Virus record (IMG/VR): IMGVR_UViG_2579778797_000009
DNA from: a virus
Lineage: Duplodnaviria > Heunggongvirae > Uroviricota > Caudoviricetes
Strand: one strand, 5' to 3'
Length of the DNA stretch: 13,823 nt
The notes under the pieces are model-generated. The model saw only the letters and a program-made list of their open reading frames with translations, did not search any database and was not told the origin of the DNA. How positions within the stretch are numbered: the stretch's first letter is position 1; every line of letters begins with the position of its first letter. Below, in pieces: positions 3 to 9,869 of this stretch. The position numbers and the translations under genes were made by a program.

Positions 3-353
3 GCTAAATCGCGCCAGCGCTGGCTGTTTTACGCGTATGACAGGCTCCGGAAGACGGTTGTTGCGCACGTATTCGGTGAACGCACGATGGCGACGCTGGG
101 GCGTCTTATGAGCCTGCTGTCACCCTTTGACGTGGTGATATGGATGACGGATGGCTGGCCGCTGTATGAATCCCGCCTGAAGGGAAAGCTGCACGTAATC
201 AGCAAGCGATATACGCAGCGAATTGAGCGGCATAACCTGAATCTGAGGCAGCACCTGGCACGGCTGGGACGGAAGTCGCTGTCGTTCTCAAAATCGGTGG
301 AGCTGCATGACAAAGTCATCGGGCATTATCTGAACATAAAACACTATCAATAA
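3..353 (+). CDS. insB: IS1 transposase InsB, C-terminal part (5'-truncated by the window edge)
   Basis: Open frame from the window start to TAA at 351-353. Translation ...[116 protein letters not shown] matches the recalled InsB C-terminus. The ORF-track start at 87 is an internal Met. Confidence 0.92.
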
Positions 354-727: not shown

Positions 728-1861
728 ATGAAAAGCAAAGTACTGGCACTTTTAATTCCTGCCCTGCTCGCCGCAGGTGCTGCACATGCAGCCGAAGTTT
801 ATAATAAAGACGGCAACAAATTAGATCTGTATGGCAAAGTTGATGGCCTGCATTATTTTTCTGATAATTCAGCGAAAGATGGCGACCAGAGCTATGCGCG
901 TCTGGGTTTTAAAGGCGAAACCCAAATTAACGATCAACTCACTGGCTACGGTCAATGGGAATACAATATTCAGGCAAACAACACTGAATCTTCAAAAAAC
1001 CAGTCATGGACCCGTCTGGCATTTGCCGGGCTGAAATTTGCAGATTACGGTTCTTTCGATTACGGACGTAATTATGGCGTAATGTACGACATCGAAGGCT
1101 GGACCGATATGCTGCCTGAATTTGGCGGTGACTCTTATACCAATGCAGACAACTTTATGACTGGTCGAGCCAATGGCGTCGCGACTTATCGTAATACTGA
1201 TTTCTTCGGTCTGGTAAATGGTCTGAACTTCGCGGTGCAGTATCAAGGTAACAACGAAGGAGCCAGTAATGGTCAGGAAGGCACCAACAACGGACGTGAT
1301 GTTCGCCATGAAAACGGTGACGGCTGGGGTCTTTCCACAACATATGATTTAGGCATGGGCTTTAGCGCTGGTGCGGCATACACCTCTTCTGACCGCACCA
1401 ATGACCAGGTTAACCATACTGCGGCGGGTGGTGATAAAGCAGACGCGTGGACTGCTGGGCTAAAATACGATGCTAACAATATTTACCTGGCAACCATGTA
1501 TTCAGAAACGCGTAATATGACCCCGTTTGGCGACAGCGATTATGCTGTGGCAAACAAAACCCAGAATTTTGAAGTCACTGCACAGTACCAGTTTGATTTT
1601 GGTCTGCGTCCGGCAGTCTCTTTCCTGATGTCTAAAGGCCGTGACCTGCACGCTGCGGGTGGTGCAGACAACCCGGCAGGTGTTGATGATAAAGATCTGG
1701 TTAAATACGCCGATGTTGGCGCGACTTACTATTTCAATAAAAACATGTCCACCTACGTTGACTATAAAATCAACCTGTTGGATGAAGATGACAGCTTCTA
1801 CGCTGCCAATGGCATCTCTACCGATGATATTGTCGCTTTAGGTCTGGTTTATCAGTTCTAA
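728..1861 (+). CDS. ompN: Outer membrane general porin OmpN (OmpC/OmpF/PhoE family), 377 aa
   Basis: ATG at 728 with an AGGA-type Shine-Dalgarno upstream; signal peptide [21 protein letters not shown]; porin hallmarks (C-terminal ...GLVYQF, aromatic girdle). Identity as ompN rather than ompC/ompF rests on the flanking micC and uspF. Confidence 0.9.
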
Positions 1862-1920: not shown

Positions 1921-2436
<516 letters not shown>

Positions 2437-2985: not shown

Positions 2986-3168
2986 TTACATTGTGTCTGG
3001 TTCTTCCGGCCACTCAATATCAGGTGCAGTTGATGTATCAACACGGTTCAACAACACCCGATACTTTTTCCATGCGGCCAGTAACGCTTTCTCTTCCTCC
3101 GTTGCGATTTCCAGCTCAACAACAGTCTGAACGTACCGGGAACAGCCTCCTTCAGAGCTTGAAGGATA
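2986..3168 (-). pseudogene. tfa: Remnant of the tail fibre assembly gene tfa (C-terminal about 45 codons recognisable)
   Basis: The 60 sense codons directly after the stf stop, in the same frame, translate [60 protein letters not shown]. The ...[23 protein letters not shown]... block matches the recalled conserved C-terminus of lambdoid Tfa (e.g. TfaR). No start codon or N-terminal part is present. Confidence 0.6.
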
Positions 3169-5658
3169 TCAATGTTCGCTTCCTGTTAACTGCCGGACAA
3201 GTGCAACCAGTTCGCTTACCTGATTTTCCAGAGTGCTGATCCGGGTGTCTGCTGTTGCCAGATTTTCACGTAGCGTTGTGTTTTCCTCTTCCAGCGCGGT
3301 AACGCGATCATCTGTTTCACGGGCGACCTGAACAAGTAAACCCGTCACGGCGGCGTAGTCAACATTAAGATAGCGCGTTTCTTCGCGTAGCTCGTTGCCG
3401 TCAACGGTCGGACCTTGTAACGCTTCACCGTAATGAGTAAACGATCCCACAGCTTCCGGTAGCGCCTCCATTACCTCCTGAGCGATAACGCCAGCGTAAG
3501 GTAGTCCGTTTTCCTTAAGGGTATAAGTGTACCCGTTCATTTTGCGGATGGCTTCAGTTGCATCACCTATAACCTGAATGTTGTCCTTCAGATCACGATC
3601 AGATGATTGGTTTATCGTTTCGCATGTAATGTGACCAGACGCTTTAAGATTTTTTACATCAAGTCTGTCGTTTGCAAAATTATATGAAATTGCGGTGCTG
3701 GTGCTTCCGGCATCATCATAATCGCTTTTATGAATAAACCAGTTTCCACCATTAGCAATGAGAGTATAAGTAGGCGTGTTAGCCGGGCGATCTGTTTCAT
3801 TAAATCTTATTGCTGGGTTAGCGCTCCTTATTTGTAAAGGTTTTTCAACCGTGGATTTCAGTATCGCACTATCTACAATTAAATTACCTTCTGAGTTAAT
3901 GTTTAGATATTTTGAAGCACCAGTTGAACCATCGTATGTAAACCTTATTGTTAATTGACCTGGCTCATTTGATAAAGTCTCAACATACATATCAGCACCA
4001 AGACGCACAGTGCTGTCAGTTGCTAACAGTCTTGTATGGAGAATACCACTAGATGTGTATGTATTGGTCGAATCACTATATCTATCAAGAAATAGACTGT
4101 TAAGTTGAGGGCTATTGCTCCTGCCTAATCCAAGATTCGTTCTGGCACCATCAATAGTTGCCGCACCAGTACCTCCGGCCGCGATCGAAAGCGGAATCCA
4201 TTCGCTATTCTCTGCATCGTAATAACCCCATGTTCCTGAATCGTAGATACTAAAAAATTTGCTTGCATTTTGACAATATACGCGTGTATTACCTGTTAGT
4301 TGAGTAAGCCTGTCCACTTCATCTTTTCTTGCGTGACGCGTCCACTGCGGGCCTATTGTCGGATTCCAGCGATAAGTATAAAGCGAGCGCGTAGCCCATC
4401 CCTGAAATACACCTGTATACGCTGGTGTTCCATCTACCTGACTAATAAACCCCGTAAGACTGCTTTCACCGGATGCAATCGATGGAAAGCCTTTTGCATT
4501 ACTCATAATGCGCATAAATCCGATATACCCTGATGGGTTGCCGGAAATATCAGGACAATCACGCGGGGCTGAGCCAAGACCGATATTATCGCCAACAATT
4601 ACTTGCGCCTGGTTGCGATAATTAAGTGCGTCCGCTGCAGATTTCGCCGCGTTTGTTTCACTGGATTTAGCATTAGTTTCGCTGGCTTTAGCGTTTGTTT
4701 CGCTGCTCTTTGCTGCTGCCTCGCTATTTTTCGCGTTGGTTTCTGATTTTTTGGCTGCTGTCGCGGAGTTTGCCGATGCAGTTTGTGAGGCCGCTGCCGC
4801 CTGTGCGCTGTTATCCGCATTCGTCTCAGACGTTTTTGCGGCCTTCGCGGAATTTCCTGCCGCCGTTGCCGAGGAAGCTGCACTACTGGCACTTGATGAT
4901 GCGTTCGTTTCTGATGATTTCGCTGCCTCTTTTGAGGCCGCCGCATCCCGGGCTGAGGTGGCAGCTTCTGACGCTTTCGTGGTCGCGGTGGATGCAGAAG
5001 TGGCTGCAGATTTTTGTGACGCTGCAGCATTCGTTTCTGACGTTTTCGCCGCACCGGCACTGGTAGCCGCCGCGCTTTTTGAGGACTCTGCAGCGGCAGC
5101 ACTTTTTGATGCTTCAGTAGCCTTTGTTGATGCCGTTCCTGCGCTGGAAGACGCTGACTGAGCCGACGTCGCGGCCTGCCCGGCTGATGTGCTGGCTGCA
5201 CGTGCTGAGCCTGCAGCATCAGTCGCATGGGTTGCCGCCTCACGGGCTGATGTGCCGGCATCGCTGGCTGACTTCTTCGCGGCTGCCGTGTTCTGTTCCA
5301 CTGCGGACGCGTTACGCGCCACCTCTTCCACCATCAGTTCAAAGCGGCGCAGTGCCTCCGGACGGGCATCATCCTCCGTCATGGCACCGAGAAAATCATT
5401 CAGTGTGCCCGGCTTTGAGTCCTCATATACGGTGATAATCCCGGCGTGTGACGGCGGGAATCCCTCCACCAACAGACTGACGCTGTACTGACCATACTCG
5501 ACGTCCATTGTGTAACGCCCGGCTTCATCCGGGTTTTCTGAGGCCACTGTGTTCACCACCACCGTGGTGCTGTTGCGCCTGGCCTTTAGCTGAATGGTGC
5601 AGTTTTGTATCGGCTTACCTGCGCCATCTTTCAGTACACCTGAAATCCGTACTGCCAT
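3169..5658 (-). CDS. stf: Side tail fibre protein, mosaic: lambda Stf-like N-terminus, Ala/Ser/Thr-rich repeat shaft, distinct distal domain, C-terminal intramolecular chaperone (peptidase S74-like) domain; 829 aa
   Basis: ATG at 5658 with a GGGGGGA Shine-Dalgarno. N-terminus MAVRISGVLKDGAGKPIQNCTIQLKARRNSTTVVVNTV... resembles recalled lambda Stf; repeated K(S/T)SETNA motifs across about residues 105-330; C-terminal 144 aa begin SDRDLKDNIQVIGDATEAIRKMNGYTYTLKENG..., the signature of self-cleaving fibre chaperone domains. Stop TGA at 3169-3171. Confidence 0.85.
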   Translation of the reverse strand: MAVRISGVLKDGAGKPIQNCTIQLKARRNSTTVVVNTVASENPDEAGRYTMDVEYGQYSVSLLVEGFPPSHAGIITVYEDSKPGTLNDFLGAMTEDDARPEALRRFELMVEEVARNASAVEQNTAAAKKSASDAGTSAREAATHATDAAGSARAASTSAGQAATSAQSASSSAGTASTKATEASKSAAAAESSKSAAATSAGAAKTSETNAAASQKSAATSASTATTKASEAATSARDAAASKEAAKSSETNASSSASSAASSATAAGNSAKAAKTSETNADNSAQAAAASQTASANSATAAKKSETNAKNSEAAAKSSETNAKASETNAKSSETNAAKSAADALNYRNQAQVIVGDNIGLGSAPRDCPDISGNPSGYIGFMRIMSNAKGFPSIASGESSLTGFISQVDGTPAYTGVFQGWATRSLYTYRWNPTIGPQWTRHARKDEVDRLTQLTGNTRVYCQNASKFFSIYDSGTWGYYDAENSEWIPLSIAAGGTGAATIDGARTNLGLGRSNSPQLNSLFLDRYSDSTNTYTSSGILHTRLLATDSTVRLGADMYVETLSNEPGQLTIRFTYDGSTGASKYLNINSEGNLIVDSAILKSTVEKPLQIRSANPAIRFNETDRPANTPTYTLIANGGNWFIHKSDYDDAGSTSTAISYNFANDRLDVKNLKASGHITCETINQSSDRDLKDNIQVIGDATEAIRKMNGYTYTLKENGLPYAGVIAQEVMEALPEAVGSFTHYGEALQGPTVDGNELREETRYLNVDYAAVTGLLVQVARETDDRVTALEEENTTLRENLATADTRISTLENQVSELVALVRQLTGSEH

Positions 5659-6389: not shown

Positions 6390-9300
6390 TCAGCTGATAC
6401 TGATGCCTGCGGTGGCTTTCTTCATCACCACAACCAGCAAATCGCTGATACTTGCTGTGGGATACCAGTCATTTACCAGCCATGCTGACACCGAAAACTC
6501 CAGCGTCGTGTGACCGTGACCGGCAGGCATATCAATAACGCCACTGTAAATCAGCGTATTATCCAGCGCGGTACGGTTATAAATTTCAGCACCGTTTTTC
6601 CGCACTATCAGACGGCATGAGGAGTAAATATCAGTATGCTCTCTCTCATGTTTAGCGCCGCTGAATGCCACCGCCGGAATAACAATCTGCCGGTCAAACG
6701 GCTGATCGTCATAAATCCTGACGGTAATGGTCCCTGATGGCCACCGCTCCGGTGCCCGGGAGTCCCGCGGGAAAGCCTTACCCACTGTTTTGACAATATC
6801 GCCTTCAATCTGGTTGGCTGACAGTTTCCCTTTAATCTGACAGTTCTCATTTATCGTAACGTTGTTGAGCGTCCCGGCGTTCGCATTCACACTGCCACTG
6901 ATATCCGCATTTTTAGCGGTCAGCTTTCCGTCCGGTGTCAGGGAAAAGGCCGGAGGATTGCCGCCGCTGGTAATGGTGGGGGCCGTCAGGCGCTTCAGGA
7001 ACACTTCATTCATGAATATCTGATCACCCTGACCAACAAACATCGGTTTTGTGTTGCCATTCGCAGGATTAATCATCGCAATCCTGTCTGCCGCCAGCAG
7101 CACCTGACTCTGCATGCCGTCAGGGGTGTTCTCAATACCGGCACCAATACCCGCGATATAAAGGCGTCCGTCCTGCATCTGCTGCAGCTTCACAGCCCAC
7201 ATGCTGTTCAGGTTATTATTTGTATCAACCTGAACCTTCTGTATCTGCTGAATTGCAGCACTCTGGTCTTCCAGTTTCTTATTGACGGTCTGCGTGATTT
7301 CATTGCTGACATCCGTAATGGACGTCCTGATTTCAGCCAGGTCAGGCGCAAGCTGACCGTTATCAATCTGCGTCCACAGCTCCTGAGCCAGATGGGTTTT
7401 CCCTATCTCGCCTTTGAAAAAATCCAGATAACCGGATGCATCATCACTCGGCTGACCAACAGCCTCCACGAATGCCGATTTGCCAACGGTGTTCACACTG
7501 CGGATATAAAAGTAATAATCATGGCCCGGTTTGATATTGATACTGGCGGCTATCCAGTACAGCGCCGTACCAAGATAGCGTGCTGTGGTTTCAACCTGCC
7601 TGATATCCGCAATCCGCTTTTCCGAGAACCAGAACTCAAACTGTACCGTCGGATCATAAACCGCAAGATGCGGCGTGGCGGTTATCTGAAAATAGCCCGG
7701 TGTCAGCTCAATCCGAGACGGCGCTGCCGGTGCGGCAATCCGGAACGATACCGATGCCGGATCGCCCTGCTGTCCCCACGCATTTACCGCCCGGACTGTC
7801 AGCCTGTAGTTCCCCAGCGCCAGTTGCGTGAAGCGGTATGTAGTTTCCGTCGTCCGGGCCGTGCTGACCAGCCGCTCACTGCCGTCATCCGCTGCCACGG
7901 TCAGGCGAAGCATAAAGCTCACCCCCTTCACCACCTTCGGCGTGTCCCAGCGCGCCAGCACCTGATATTCCCCGCTGTCTGCGGTGACTTCGGCAGTCAG
8001 GTGCTGCACCGCTGGCGGCGTGACACCATTCACCGTGCCGCTCTGGTCGCCGTCAAAGTGCGCCCCGTTATCCACGATGGCCTCTTTTTCCGGCACATGC
8101 TGCACGGCGGTGATGGCATACGTGCCGTCGTCGTTCTCACGGATACTCACGCAGCGAAACAGTCGCTGGCGCAGCGTCGGCAGCTTCAGCCCCCATACGC
8201 TGTATTCAGCAACACCGTCAGGAACACGGCTCACTTTTACCTTCACGCCGTCGGTGGCGGACTGGACCTCCACGCTGACCGGATTGCCATTTCCGTCAAC
8301 CAGGCTTATCAGCGTGGTACCGGAGGATGGCAGCGTGATTTCACGGTCGAGCGTCAGCGTCCGGGTCTGGCTGTTCACCGCCAGCACGCGCCCACCGGTG
8401 CTGATACCCGCATAGTCATCATCACAGATTTCAATGACATCGCCCGGCACATGGCGAAGCCCTTCTGCGCCCACGCTGAAGTCCACGGTCTGCGTTTCCA
8501 GCAGTTCTGTTTTAATCAGCCACAGCCCGGCGCGGTGTGCCTGCCCCCGGCTGGTACAGCCAAAGGCATCCATCTTCGTGACATTACGACCATAACGGGC
8601 AATGGCCTGCGTATCTTCAACAAGCTCTGTCGCCGTCTCCCAGCCGTTGTCCGGGTCAATCCAGTTCACCTCAACGGCATTATGGCGGACCTTCAGGGCG
8701 CTGAAACTGTAGCGGAACGGCGCGCCATCATCCGGCATCACCACATTACTGCGGTTATAGGTCCACACCTTATCCGACGGCCGGTCCTGCACGAACGTCA
8801 GCGTCTGCCCGTTCCATACCGGCATACAGCGCATCGCCGAGCAGAAATCACTGAGCACATCCCACGCCTTACGCTGTGTGGTCAGCCAGGCATTACAGGT
8901 GATGCGCGGCTCCGTGCCGCCAAAGCCGTCCGGCACCGACTGGTCGCAGTACTGGCCGATGACATACAGCGCCCATTTATCCACATCCGCCGCACCAAGA
9001 CGTTTCCCCATGCCGTAGCGCGGGTGGGTCAGCATATCCCACAGACACCATGCCATGTTGTTGCTGTATGCTGGCTTAAACGTTCCGTCCCAGATACCGC
9101 TGTATTGCCGCGTCTGCGGGTTATAGTTCGACGGCACCTGCAGAATGCGCCCGCGAAGATGATAATTACGGCTCACCTGCTGGCTGCCGAACTGCTCCGA
9201 GTCCACCTGTACGCCGACCAGTGCCGTGTTCGGGTAGCACTGTTTCACATCGATGATTTCGGTGTATGACGACCAGAGCGTTTTGTTCTGCAGCTGGTCT

Positions 9301-9869
9301 GTGGTGCTGTCCGGCGTCATCCTGCGCATCCGGATGTTGAACGGGCGCGGCGGCAGGTTACCCACCACCACCGAGGCCAGATACTGCGAGGTGGTTTTGC
9401 CCTTAATGGTGATGTCTTTTTCCGTCACCCAGCCACCGTTACGTTGTATCTGAACCAGCAGGCGGACTTCCGACGGATTCCGGTCCCCCTTTGAGGTGGT
9501 TTCCACCAGTGCCTGCACACCGAAGGTAAAGCGCAGTCGGTCGATGTTTGCCGACGTGATGGCGCGGGTGATCGGCGTGTCGTATTTCACTTCCGTACCC
9601 AGCACCGTCTCGGAGCCGGAGGATTCAAATCCCTCCGGCGGAGTCTGCTCCTGCTCACCAGCCCGGAACACCACCGTGACACCGGCGATGTTGGTATTCC
9701 CCTCACTGTCCAGCACCGGCGTACTGTTCAGCAGCACGCTTTTTAATCCATCCACCGGACCTTCAATCGGCCCTTCACTGATGGCATCAATCACACTCAG
9801 CAACTGCGTGGATTTCAGGTTGTCCTTCGCTTCACGCGGGGTATGCCCCTTACTGCTGCCTTTACCCAT
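6390..9869 (-). CDS. J: Tail tip / host specificity protein J (central tail fibre), 1159 aa
   Basis: ATG at 9869. N-terminus [45 protein letters not shown]... and most of the first ~800 residues match recalled lambda gpJ. The C-terminal region appears divergent (see findings). Confidence 0.93.

Follow-up and report, generated by a model that had tools for sequence, protein, structure and literature searches.

A lambda-type side tail fibre gene that very probably ends in a self-cleaving intramolecular chaperone replacing the ancestral tip and tfa

The C-terminal intramolecular chaperones (IMCs) of the K1F endosialidase (3GW6) and the GA-1 neck appendage (3GUD) are the founding members of Peptidase S74, a family that also includes T5 pb1 and S16 gp37. 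The side tail fibre (Stf) described here carries a domain of the same family, with the same fold and Ser/Lys logic, but the K1F and GA-1 proteins are podovirus tailspikes or appendages with enzymatic or other bodies, and the sequence identity to them is only ~15-24%. Salmonella phage S16 gp37 (6F45) shares the pre-cleavage motif '...C..LN.SSDR.K' with this Stf; nevertheless, it is the distal subunit of a myovirus long fibre and docks a separate gp38 adhesin, and no gp38-type gene is present here. T5 pb1 differs in its N-terminal anchor, its shaft and its bullet-shaped oligomannose-binding tip, which are not in this Stf, and in the residues that precede the cleavage site. The related domain of MYRF (ICA, 7DC3) comes from a eukaryotic membrane-bound transcription factor and not from a fibre.

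Concerning the rest of the gene, the comparison is with Stf and Tfa of phage lambda. The position after J and lom, the N-terminal ~280 residues and the last ~124 nt of tfa (85%) are alike. However, the lambda tip (the orf-314 part) and the first ~3/4 of tfa are missing here, and an unrelated distal region and the IMC are found instead. The same lambda-type N-terminal domain and shaft are present in mEp460 (NC_019716, gp20), PhiR70_1 and Ayreon, whose IMCs show 77-90% amino-acid identity to this one. These phages also have the 36-nt spacer and the start-less tfa stub found here, and an intact tfa is missing from all of them. Over all 829 residues, the fibre of PhiR70_1 aligns collinearly with this Stf at 90% identity. 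In the fibres of mEp460 (1202 aa) and E. coli E2 (1091 aa), the stretch from the shaft to the IMC contains different or extra receptor-binding blocks; this Stf is the short 829-aa form.

No functional study of fibres of the mEp460, PhiR70_1 or Ayreon type was found in the searchable literature, and literature searches for an earlier description of an IMC in a lambdoid Stf returned nothing specific. A preprint on the engineering of lambda particles used a P2 chimera and left chaperones unmentioned. On the other hand, the S74 domain, its mechanism, the alternation of IMC and Tfa among related phages and the exact architecture are already known from databases or the literature, and RefSeq names the relatives 'prophage tail fiber N-terminal domain and S74 family endopeptidase-containing protein'.

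The stf gene, its setting and its lambda-type part

The window, i.e. the whole stretch of 13,823 nucleotides that was analysed, carries the following features in stf:

3169..5658, minus strand: stf, side tail fibre gene (ORF list, translation, Pfam of neighbouring ORFs, annotated relatives)
5257..5658, minus strand: prophage tail fibre N-terminal domain, residues 1-134, tail attachment (Pfam PF08400)
4817..5658, minus strand: 5' part of stf that is homologous to lambda, residues 1 to ~280 (blastn)
4624..5256, minus strand: Ala/Ser/Thr-rich repetitive shaft, residues 135 to ~345 (translation)
4324..4566, minus strand: compact beta-rich knob-like domain, residues ~365-445
3604..4101, minus strand: distal beta-rich domain, residues ~520-685 (AF2 strands, pLDDT ~50-79)

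The ORF has an ATG start, 829 codons and a TGA stop at 3169-3171 (ORF list and translation), and its primary product is 86.7 kDa. The Pfam matches of the neighbouring ORFs give the late operon order H' M L K I J lom stf, in which stf is the last intact gene and lies downstream of J and lom, as expected for a lambda-type Stf. Every tail gene of the window is an intact ORF and has a full-length match in Pfam. On the 3' side of stf there is a tfa stub, followed by ~150 nt of non-coding DNA and by the chromosomal uspF; the carrier is a lambda-like E. coli prophage inserted beside uspF/ompN. The window spans the tail end only, and the prophage may be defective outside it. An NCBIfam scan of Stf and of the tfa stub gave no family match.

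The N-terminal part had been described from the sequence as lambda Stf-like, which is borne out over ~280 residues. Residues 1-134 correspond to phage_tail_N (PF08400, E 1.8e-70), residues 1-94 match a solved chain of 94 aa that the PDB lists as 'Tail fiber protein' (9e7m, E 2.4e-49), and positions 5794-4817 of the window align by blastn with lambda orf-401 at 86.3% nucleotide identity. The homology to lambda stops within the Ala/Ser-rich shaft, at about residue 280, and beyond this point blastn found no similarity to lambda, its distal tip included. In the PDB, the shaft is weakly matched by repeat regions in chains of depolymerases and of T5 fibres.

Further along the protein, residues 345-685 were modelled as an AF2 monomer with medium to low confidence (pLDDT ~50-79). 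The distal domain is common to the E. coli E2 and PhiR70_1 fibres and is absent from mEp460 and lambda. Residues ~520-685 are presumed to be the tip of the mature fibre and its receptor-binding region, and the domain ends with the pre-cleavage motif KASGHITCETINQS. The conserved pre-cleavage pattern V/L-x-x-x-G-x-I/V-x-C-x-x-x-N-Q-S is present.

The C-terminal chaperone domain and the proposed cleavage

Three features were located at the 3' end of the gene:

3172..3603, minus strand: C-terminal intramolecular chaperone (IMC), Peptidase S74, residues 686-829, 15.9 kDa
3601..3603, minus strand: TCT codon of Ser686, the predicted nucleophile, with which the released fragment would begin (sequence)
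3586..3588, minus strand: Lys691 codon AAG, predicted general base, five residues past the Ser (sequence)

The preliminary description took the last 144 residues for an S74-type IMC, and sequence, profile and predicted fold agree on this assignment, with a match far beyond chance. The translation includes ...CETINQSSDRDLKDNIQVIGDATEAIRKMNGYTYTLKENGLPYAGVIAQEVMEALPEAV..., and the last 144 codons do begin at Ser686 (SDRDLK...), but the peptide that had been quoted for them starts two residues earlier, at Gln684-Ser685. When residues 686-829 were compared with Pfam, as had been proposed, Peptidase_S74 (PF13884) matched residues 686-737 with E 1.6e-14 and 54.3 bits (cut-off 22). The 144-aa domain matches 2190 representative clusters. 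S-D-x-x-x-K is conserved in the 106 near-full matches (Ser in 105, Cys in 1), and the domain is found at the extreme C-terminus in 104 of these 106 homologues; here it extends as far as residue 829, where the protein ends. With the C-terminus of the fibre of slur09, a T5-like phage, it shares 71% amino-acid identity.

A single-sequence phmmer search of the IMC against the PDB found S16 gp37 alone, and the slur09 IMC used as a query did not reach T5 pb1; a profile built from 33 diverse IMC homologues was needed. With this profile, S16 gp37 (6F45) was matched over the whole domain and was the best among solved structures (E 5e-15, more exactly 5.2e-15), and matches were also obtained with the MYRF ICA (7DC3, E 3.6e-10), the T5 L-shaped fibre (8HQZ_d, E 6.6e-6) and the GA-1 appendage (3GUD, E 0.021). 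The AF2 model of the IMC (pLDDT 95.8) has a helix/strand/hairpin/long-helix topology and contains the parts expected of this fold: the alpha/beta part is short, the beta-hairpin is long (residues ~737-766), and the C-terminal helix, for which a trimeric coiled coil is predicted, has 58 residues. Foldseek gave a probability of 1.00 for 7DC3 and the endosialidase IMC 3GW6 only (E up to 4.4e-3), and no structures other than solved IMC domains matched the model over a long stretch.

Regarding the catalytic residues, the placement of Ser686 at codon 3601-3603 in the preliminary description is correct, since TCT is read there directly, and Lys691 is AAG at 3588-3586. Ser686, the Asp that follows it and Lys691 (S1, D2 and K6) are invariant in the alignment of the family (A2), and all family-invariant residues are retained. 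In T5 pb1 the pair Ser1264/Lys1269 is required, the S1264A mutant stays uncleaved and the uncleaved IMC masks receptor binding, and a C-terminal fragment expressed in E. coli folded and cleaved itself, with no added chaperone reported (PMC4690869). Ser686 and Lys691 are the predicted counterparts of this pair. The residues that sense correct folding in T5 are Arg1250 and Asp1239, and in T5 and K1F the Arg and Asp come from neighbouring chains. At the T5 Arg spacing, 14 positions before Ser686, this Stf has Lys672 and no Arg, in a part where the monomer model has pLDDT ~50-79.

By homology, three nascent Stf chains would join via the C-terminal helices of their IMCs, and the alpha/beta part together with the beta-hairpin 'tentacles' would template the trimeric beta-structure of the distal region. 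After correct folding of the tip, Lys691 would activate Ser686 for an attack on the Ser685-Ser686 bond; the 15.9 kDa fragment would leave, and the mature chain would be 70.9 kDa and end in ...TINQS. This step would be equivalent to the unmasking of the receptor-binding tip in T5. The separate chaperone Tfa would be dispensable for Stf because the folding help would be built into it. The mature tip would end at Ser685, which would fix the location of the receptor-binding surface. On the whole, it is very probable that this gene encodes a lambda-type Stf in which a tip with a self-cleaving IMC replaces the ancestral tip and tfa.

It could also be that, after release of the IMC, the tip does not bind a receptor directly but docks a separate adhesin, as S16 gp37 docks gp38. 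S16 gp37, the closest solved relative in sequence, was crystallised with its adhesin (6F45), and such docking has been suggested for some S74-ending fibres in a tail-fibre atlas preprint. Nevertheless, no adhesin-like or gp38-like ORF is found after stf, where there are only the stub, the ~150 nt of non-coding DNA and uspF, and in T5 pb1, another relative, receptor binding is direct, so this reading is extremely unlikely.

Furthermore, the S74 domain could be an inactive relic, attached or idle, in a decaying prophage that makes no side fibres. Side fibres are dispensable for lambda plaque formation, and the laboratory lambda strain lacks them (Ur-lambda and lambda PaPa are discussed in the literature in this respect). 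The gene is split into two CDSs in some close relatives, e.g. in strain B1W1 and in the case of the 447-448-aa products P0036/P0037, and just the tail end of the prophage is visible. On the other hand, the stf ORF is intact and keeps every invariant residue of the family, the tail genes beside it are intact as well, and the same gene is found in isolated plaque-forming phages. Moreover, the dN/dS of the IMC against four relatives is 0.08-0.20, which corresponds to purifying selection. Loss of function is very improbable, and the reading of a working, self-chaperoned fibre is preferred.

The tfa remnant downstream of stf

The region directly after the stop of stf contains two features:

3133..3168, minus strand: 36-nt spacer that separates the tfa stub from the stf stop (blastn boundaries)
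2986..3132, minus strand: 3' remnant of a lambda-type tfa, ~47 C-terminal codons and TAA (translation, PHROG, blastn)

The spacer is not derived from lambda and travels with the IMC cassette, with 0-2 differences in 39 nt among five loci. The stub follows on the 3' side of the stf stop and is in frame with it in the five loci compared in detail. In blastn it aligns with the final 124 nt of lambda tfa at 85.5% nucleotide identity, and it matches PHROG tail-fibre-assembly families (E 5.6e-19) at C-terminal positions only, i.e. ~158-204 of 239 in phrog_105 and 138-183 of 207 in phrog_188. There is no usable start, as no in-frame ATG, GTG or TTG occurs before the last 23 codons, and the stub falls short of a full-length Tfa, which would be an ORF of ~190 aa with a start codon. 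The ORF list contains no intact tfa in the window, and in the PGAP annotation of E. coli E2 and EcPNK006 the equivalent stub is a tfa pseudogene whose N-terminus is missing.

These data support the idea of a module swap that had been put forward from the sequence: the start-less 3' end of tfa lies right after the stf stop in a window without the intact gene. We infer that the stub is the scar of the replacement of 'stf distal part + tfa' by 'new tip + IMC'.

The dN/dS of the stub is 0.24-0.70 and not ~1, on tiny site counts with 5-15 changes. The stub and the adjacent IMC have diverged to discordant degrees (3.5% vs 11.2%, p=0.002; 4.2% vs 13.6%, p=0.0005), and this discordance points to recombination with live tfa genes and not to selection on the stub. 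Expression of the stub, from a start of its own or by read-through, is unlikely, considering that it is start-less and that its dN/dS comes from such small counts.

These values bear on whether the fibre needs a Tfa-type chaperone after all, supplied in trans by another prophage or by an expressed stub (e.g. through TGA read-through). The conserved reading frame and a dN/dS below ~1 would fit a contribution of the stub, and other prophages with intact tfa are usual in E. coli, most genomes holding such genes, so that help in trans to Stf is possible. However, the stub keeps ~47 Tfa-like codons vs ~194 in lambda Tfa, a read-through product would sit on the fragment that is cleaved off, and the distal region is dissimilar to the lambda Stf tip on which Tfa acts. 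The self-cleaving T5 pb1 fragment (PMC4690869) and the recombination signal in the stub also argue against it. This dependence is very improbable, and a fibre that brings its own chaperone is the better account.

Spread and probable recombination of the cassette

Of 5426 complete E. coli genomes, 801 have the junction of IMC and tfa stub, and so do the viable, plaque-forming phage isolates mEp460, Ayreon and PhiR70_1. The cassette is combined with several receptor-binding regions and with two or more N-terminal anchors. A fibre gene that joins the same distal cassette to a non-lambda anchor is not followed by a tfa stub, which is consistent with the stub being a scar of the lambda lineage. Hence, the swap is not a feature of this genome alone: the cassette is old, widespread, mobile and already annotated, and stf is here a clear case of tail-fibre mosaicism with a visible scar. 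Expression of self-chaperoned fibres of this kind, and their transfer to lambda-based delivery particles, would probably require no matching Tfa.

As regards the origin of the short 829-aa form, a plain deletion of the 1091-aa E2 form was ruled out by the split in identity and the differing junction sequence. The window and E2 are 96% identical upstream of nt 3631 and only 87.6% on the IMC side, and judging by the sequences the short form looks like cassette recombination at a repeated module.

Finally, it is possible, as a tentative proposal, that the stub, the highly conserved IMC and the conserved lambda-type shaft act as fixed homology arms for swapping whole tips between co-resident prophages through homologous recombination, from Tfa-dependent to self-chaperoned and back, with repeated gene conversion keeping the stub similar to live tfa. 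Hints in this direction are the discordant divergence of stub and IMC, the retention of the stub in those 801 genomes and its absence in the non-lambda lineage.

Gene neighbourhood of the side tail fibre

The window is composed of E. coli-type chromosome and of a lambda-like prophage, represented by its right end. The prophage genes lie on the minus strand in the order H M L K I J lom stf; their ORFs are intact and match Pfam models over the full length, and E. coli proteins on record are 100% identical to the stf product across residues 345-829.

Features of the window
1 to about 368, plus strand: 3' end of IS1, upstream of ompN, cut by the window edge
728-1861, plus strand: ompN
1930-2436, plus strand: uspF
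3169-5658, minus strand: stf, intact ORF of 829 codons
5723-6322, minus strand: lom, intact ORF, full-length Pfam match
6390-9869, minus strand: J, intact ORF, full-length Pfam match
minus strand: H (tape measure, truncated), followed by M, L, K and I (Pfam)

Within the IS1 end, the ORF at 87-353 (plus strand) matches positions 44-131 of DDE_Tnp_IS1 (E 5.7e-48). The prophage-chromosome boundary falls at 2832-2985, within about 150 nt past a tfa stub (2986-3132, minus strand), the 3' remnant of a lambda-type tail fibre assembly gene, and, from 2832 down, the window aligns with DNA flanking uspF in another strain. Therefore, the prophage genes end with stf, and a lambda-like b region is absent. 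Long alternative-frame or antisense ORFs in the Ala/Ser-rich part of stf (4599-5261, minus; 4695-5161, plus) and within J (7392-9269, plus, 625 aa) are probably compositional; in lambda, the antisense orf206b is annotated at the equivalent place in stf.

The C-terminal S74 chaperone domain

The stf ORF translates as the preliminary description had written it. The peptide quoted there as the last 144 codons is correct in sequence, but it begins at Gln684, whereas these codons start at Ser686 (TCT, 3603-3601), with Lys691 encoded by AAG (3588-3586). This segment had been assigned to the intramolecular chaperones (IMC), and Pfam places Peptidase_S74 at residues 686-737 (E 1.6e-14; 54.3 bits, with a cut-off of 22 bits). 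Since the model spans only the first 52 of the 144 residues, the remainder was tested further.

With the whole segment as query, 2190 clusters were retrieved from 1.84 billion representative proteins (E up to 0.001). The S-D-x-x-x-K motif is kept in the 106 near-full-length matches, with Cys replacing Ser in one, and in 104 of them the domain forms the C-terminal protein end. In P0184, from the representative library, the nucleophilic Ser, invariant elsewhere, is Cys (TQTCDRELK). Among solved structures, the profile built from alignment A2 (33 diverse members) matched S16 gp37 over the whole domain (6F45, E 5.2e-15); further hits were the MYRF ICA domain (7DC3, E 3.6e-10), the L-shaped fibre of T5 (8HQZ_d, E 6.6e-6) and the chaperone of the GA-1 appendage (3GUD, E 0.021). 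AlphaFold2 with the same alignment gave a 144-residue model (pLDDT 95.8) consisting of a short helix, two short strands, a helix, a long beta-hairpin and a 58-residue helix. This predicted fold agrees with the published account of the T5 chaperone, in which an alpha/beta part flanks a coiled coil and hairpins form tentacles (PMC4690869). The segment also shares 71% identity with the C-terminal end of the fibre in the T5-like phage slur09. Membership of the S74 chaperone family is established at the level of sequence and predicted fold.

With a dN/dS of 0.08-0.20 against four relatives, the domain is under purifying selection; it is also present and intact. The uninterrupted stf ORF, the conserved key residues and these low ratios make an inactive relic unlikely.

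From work on T5, K1F and GA-1, we infer that the stf product is cleaved. The chaperone would use its C-terminal helices to nucleate the trimer and would clasp the distal beta-structure; once folding is correct, Ser686 and Lys691 would cut the Ser685-Ser686 bond, freeing 15.9 kDa per chain, leaving a mature chain of 70.9 kDa and probably uncovering the receptor-binding tip. The monomer model is confident for a knob-like domain at residues about 365-445; the distal residues 520-685 are beta-rich in it, with only moderate confidence and weak fold matches. Docking of a separate adhesin on the fibre, as in S16, is unlikely, as there is no gene 3' of stf.

This architecture is common and already annotated, and the domain family is well understood. 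PHROGs holds such fibres (phrog_6578), S74 ends are common across fibre classes (fibre-atlas preprint), and phages that are close relatives can rely on a C-terminal chaperone in one case and on a separate Tfa in another (BASEL paper, PMC11990801). A literature search found no paper on the lambdoid case specifically.

Lambda-type front end and tfa remnant

The N-terminal part is lambda Stf-like, as proposed: phage_tail_N covers residues 1-134 (Pfam, E 1.8e-70), and window 5794-4817, which encodes residues 1 to about 280, shares 86% identity with lambda stf in its 5' part (orf-401). The comparison with lambda gave no match between 4817 and 3131; at 3131-3008, the final 124 nt of lambda tfa align at 85% identity. 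Directly past the stf stop, the same frame translates into 60 residues and a stop, of which residues 13-59 match only C-terminal positions of tail-fibre-assembly PHROGs (E 5.6e-19). The stub frame has no start codon ahead of its last 23 codons, and no other tfa was found within the window. In the E. coli strains E2 and EcPNK006, PGAP calls the equivalent stretch a tfa pseudogene "missing N-terminus".

The end of the lambda match at about residue 280 and the startless stub left 3' of stf uphold the proposed module swap. Judged from its sequence, the stub is the footprint of the replacement of a lambda-type tip and most of tfa by a new tip with a built-in chaperone, and it lends the strongest support to the claim that Tfa is no longer used. 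It is less probable that the fibre depends on a trans-acting Tfa or on the stub itself, the sole point in favour being a sub-neutral stub dN/dS (0.24-0.70, not about 1), calculated from very few sites. Overall, the initial observation of a chaperone domain at the end of the fibre is confirmed, and every computational test available supports its interpretation.

Each of the five loci compared keeps the stub in the frame of the stf stop. In some pairs, stub and adjacent IMC have diverged to discordant extents, respectively 3.5% vs 11.2% between E2 and EcPNK006 (p=0.002), and 4.2% vs 13.6% between the isolated phage PhiR70_1 and E2 (p=0.0005). This discordance suggests recombination breakpoints between stub and IMC, and the stub seems to have recombined repeatedly with live tfa genes. 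As a hypothesis, it may serve as a homology arm for swapping fibre tips with other prophages.

Distribution and variants of the fibre

The junction of IMC and stub (probe 2989-3603, coverage of at least 80%) is found in 801 of 5426 complete E. coli genomes, and the full stf gene in 72. RefSeq names for relatives include "pyocin knob domain-containing S74 family peptidase". The isolated phages mEp460, Ayreon and PhiR70_1 share the arrangement, with the tfa stub and without an intact tfa.

The receptor-binding part is variable and is flanked by a conserved shaft and a conserved IMC. The PhiR70_1 fibre is collinear and 90% identical to that of the window; mEp460 has only residues 1-509 and 645-829 in common with it, and E2 shares residues 1-681, followed by an extra block of ~263 residues ahead of the IMC. 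S74-ending Stf proteins occur in E. coli in two lengths, short (829-830 aa; window, PhiR70_1) and long (1091 aa; E2), the extra block being inserted past '...NLKASG' (8024-8815 in the E2 locus; window junction 3631). Because the segment before the insertion resembles that before the IMC, the exchange seems to take place at a repeated structural module.

Another prophage locus (L008, 6001-8193) encodes a 730-aa fibre (P0067) with the same distal cassette and IMC and a different N-terminal anchor (MIYTTGTIAI...); this prophage has a 1646-residue J, no lom and no tfa stub 3' of the fibre. The lambda-like phage 2G7b (157-5416 of its locus) builds its side fibre from two proteins, one Stf-like (791 aa) and a second one (345 aa) that carries the IMC, with a 93-aa ORF listed between them; further downstream, two short stretches are annotated as tfa fragments. 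Finally, a 699-aa E. coli protein (P0068) is recorded with both Ail/Lom (PF06316) and Peptidase_S74 domains, and could reflect either a fusion of lom with a fibre gene or an error in gene calling.
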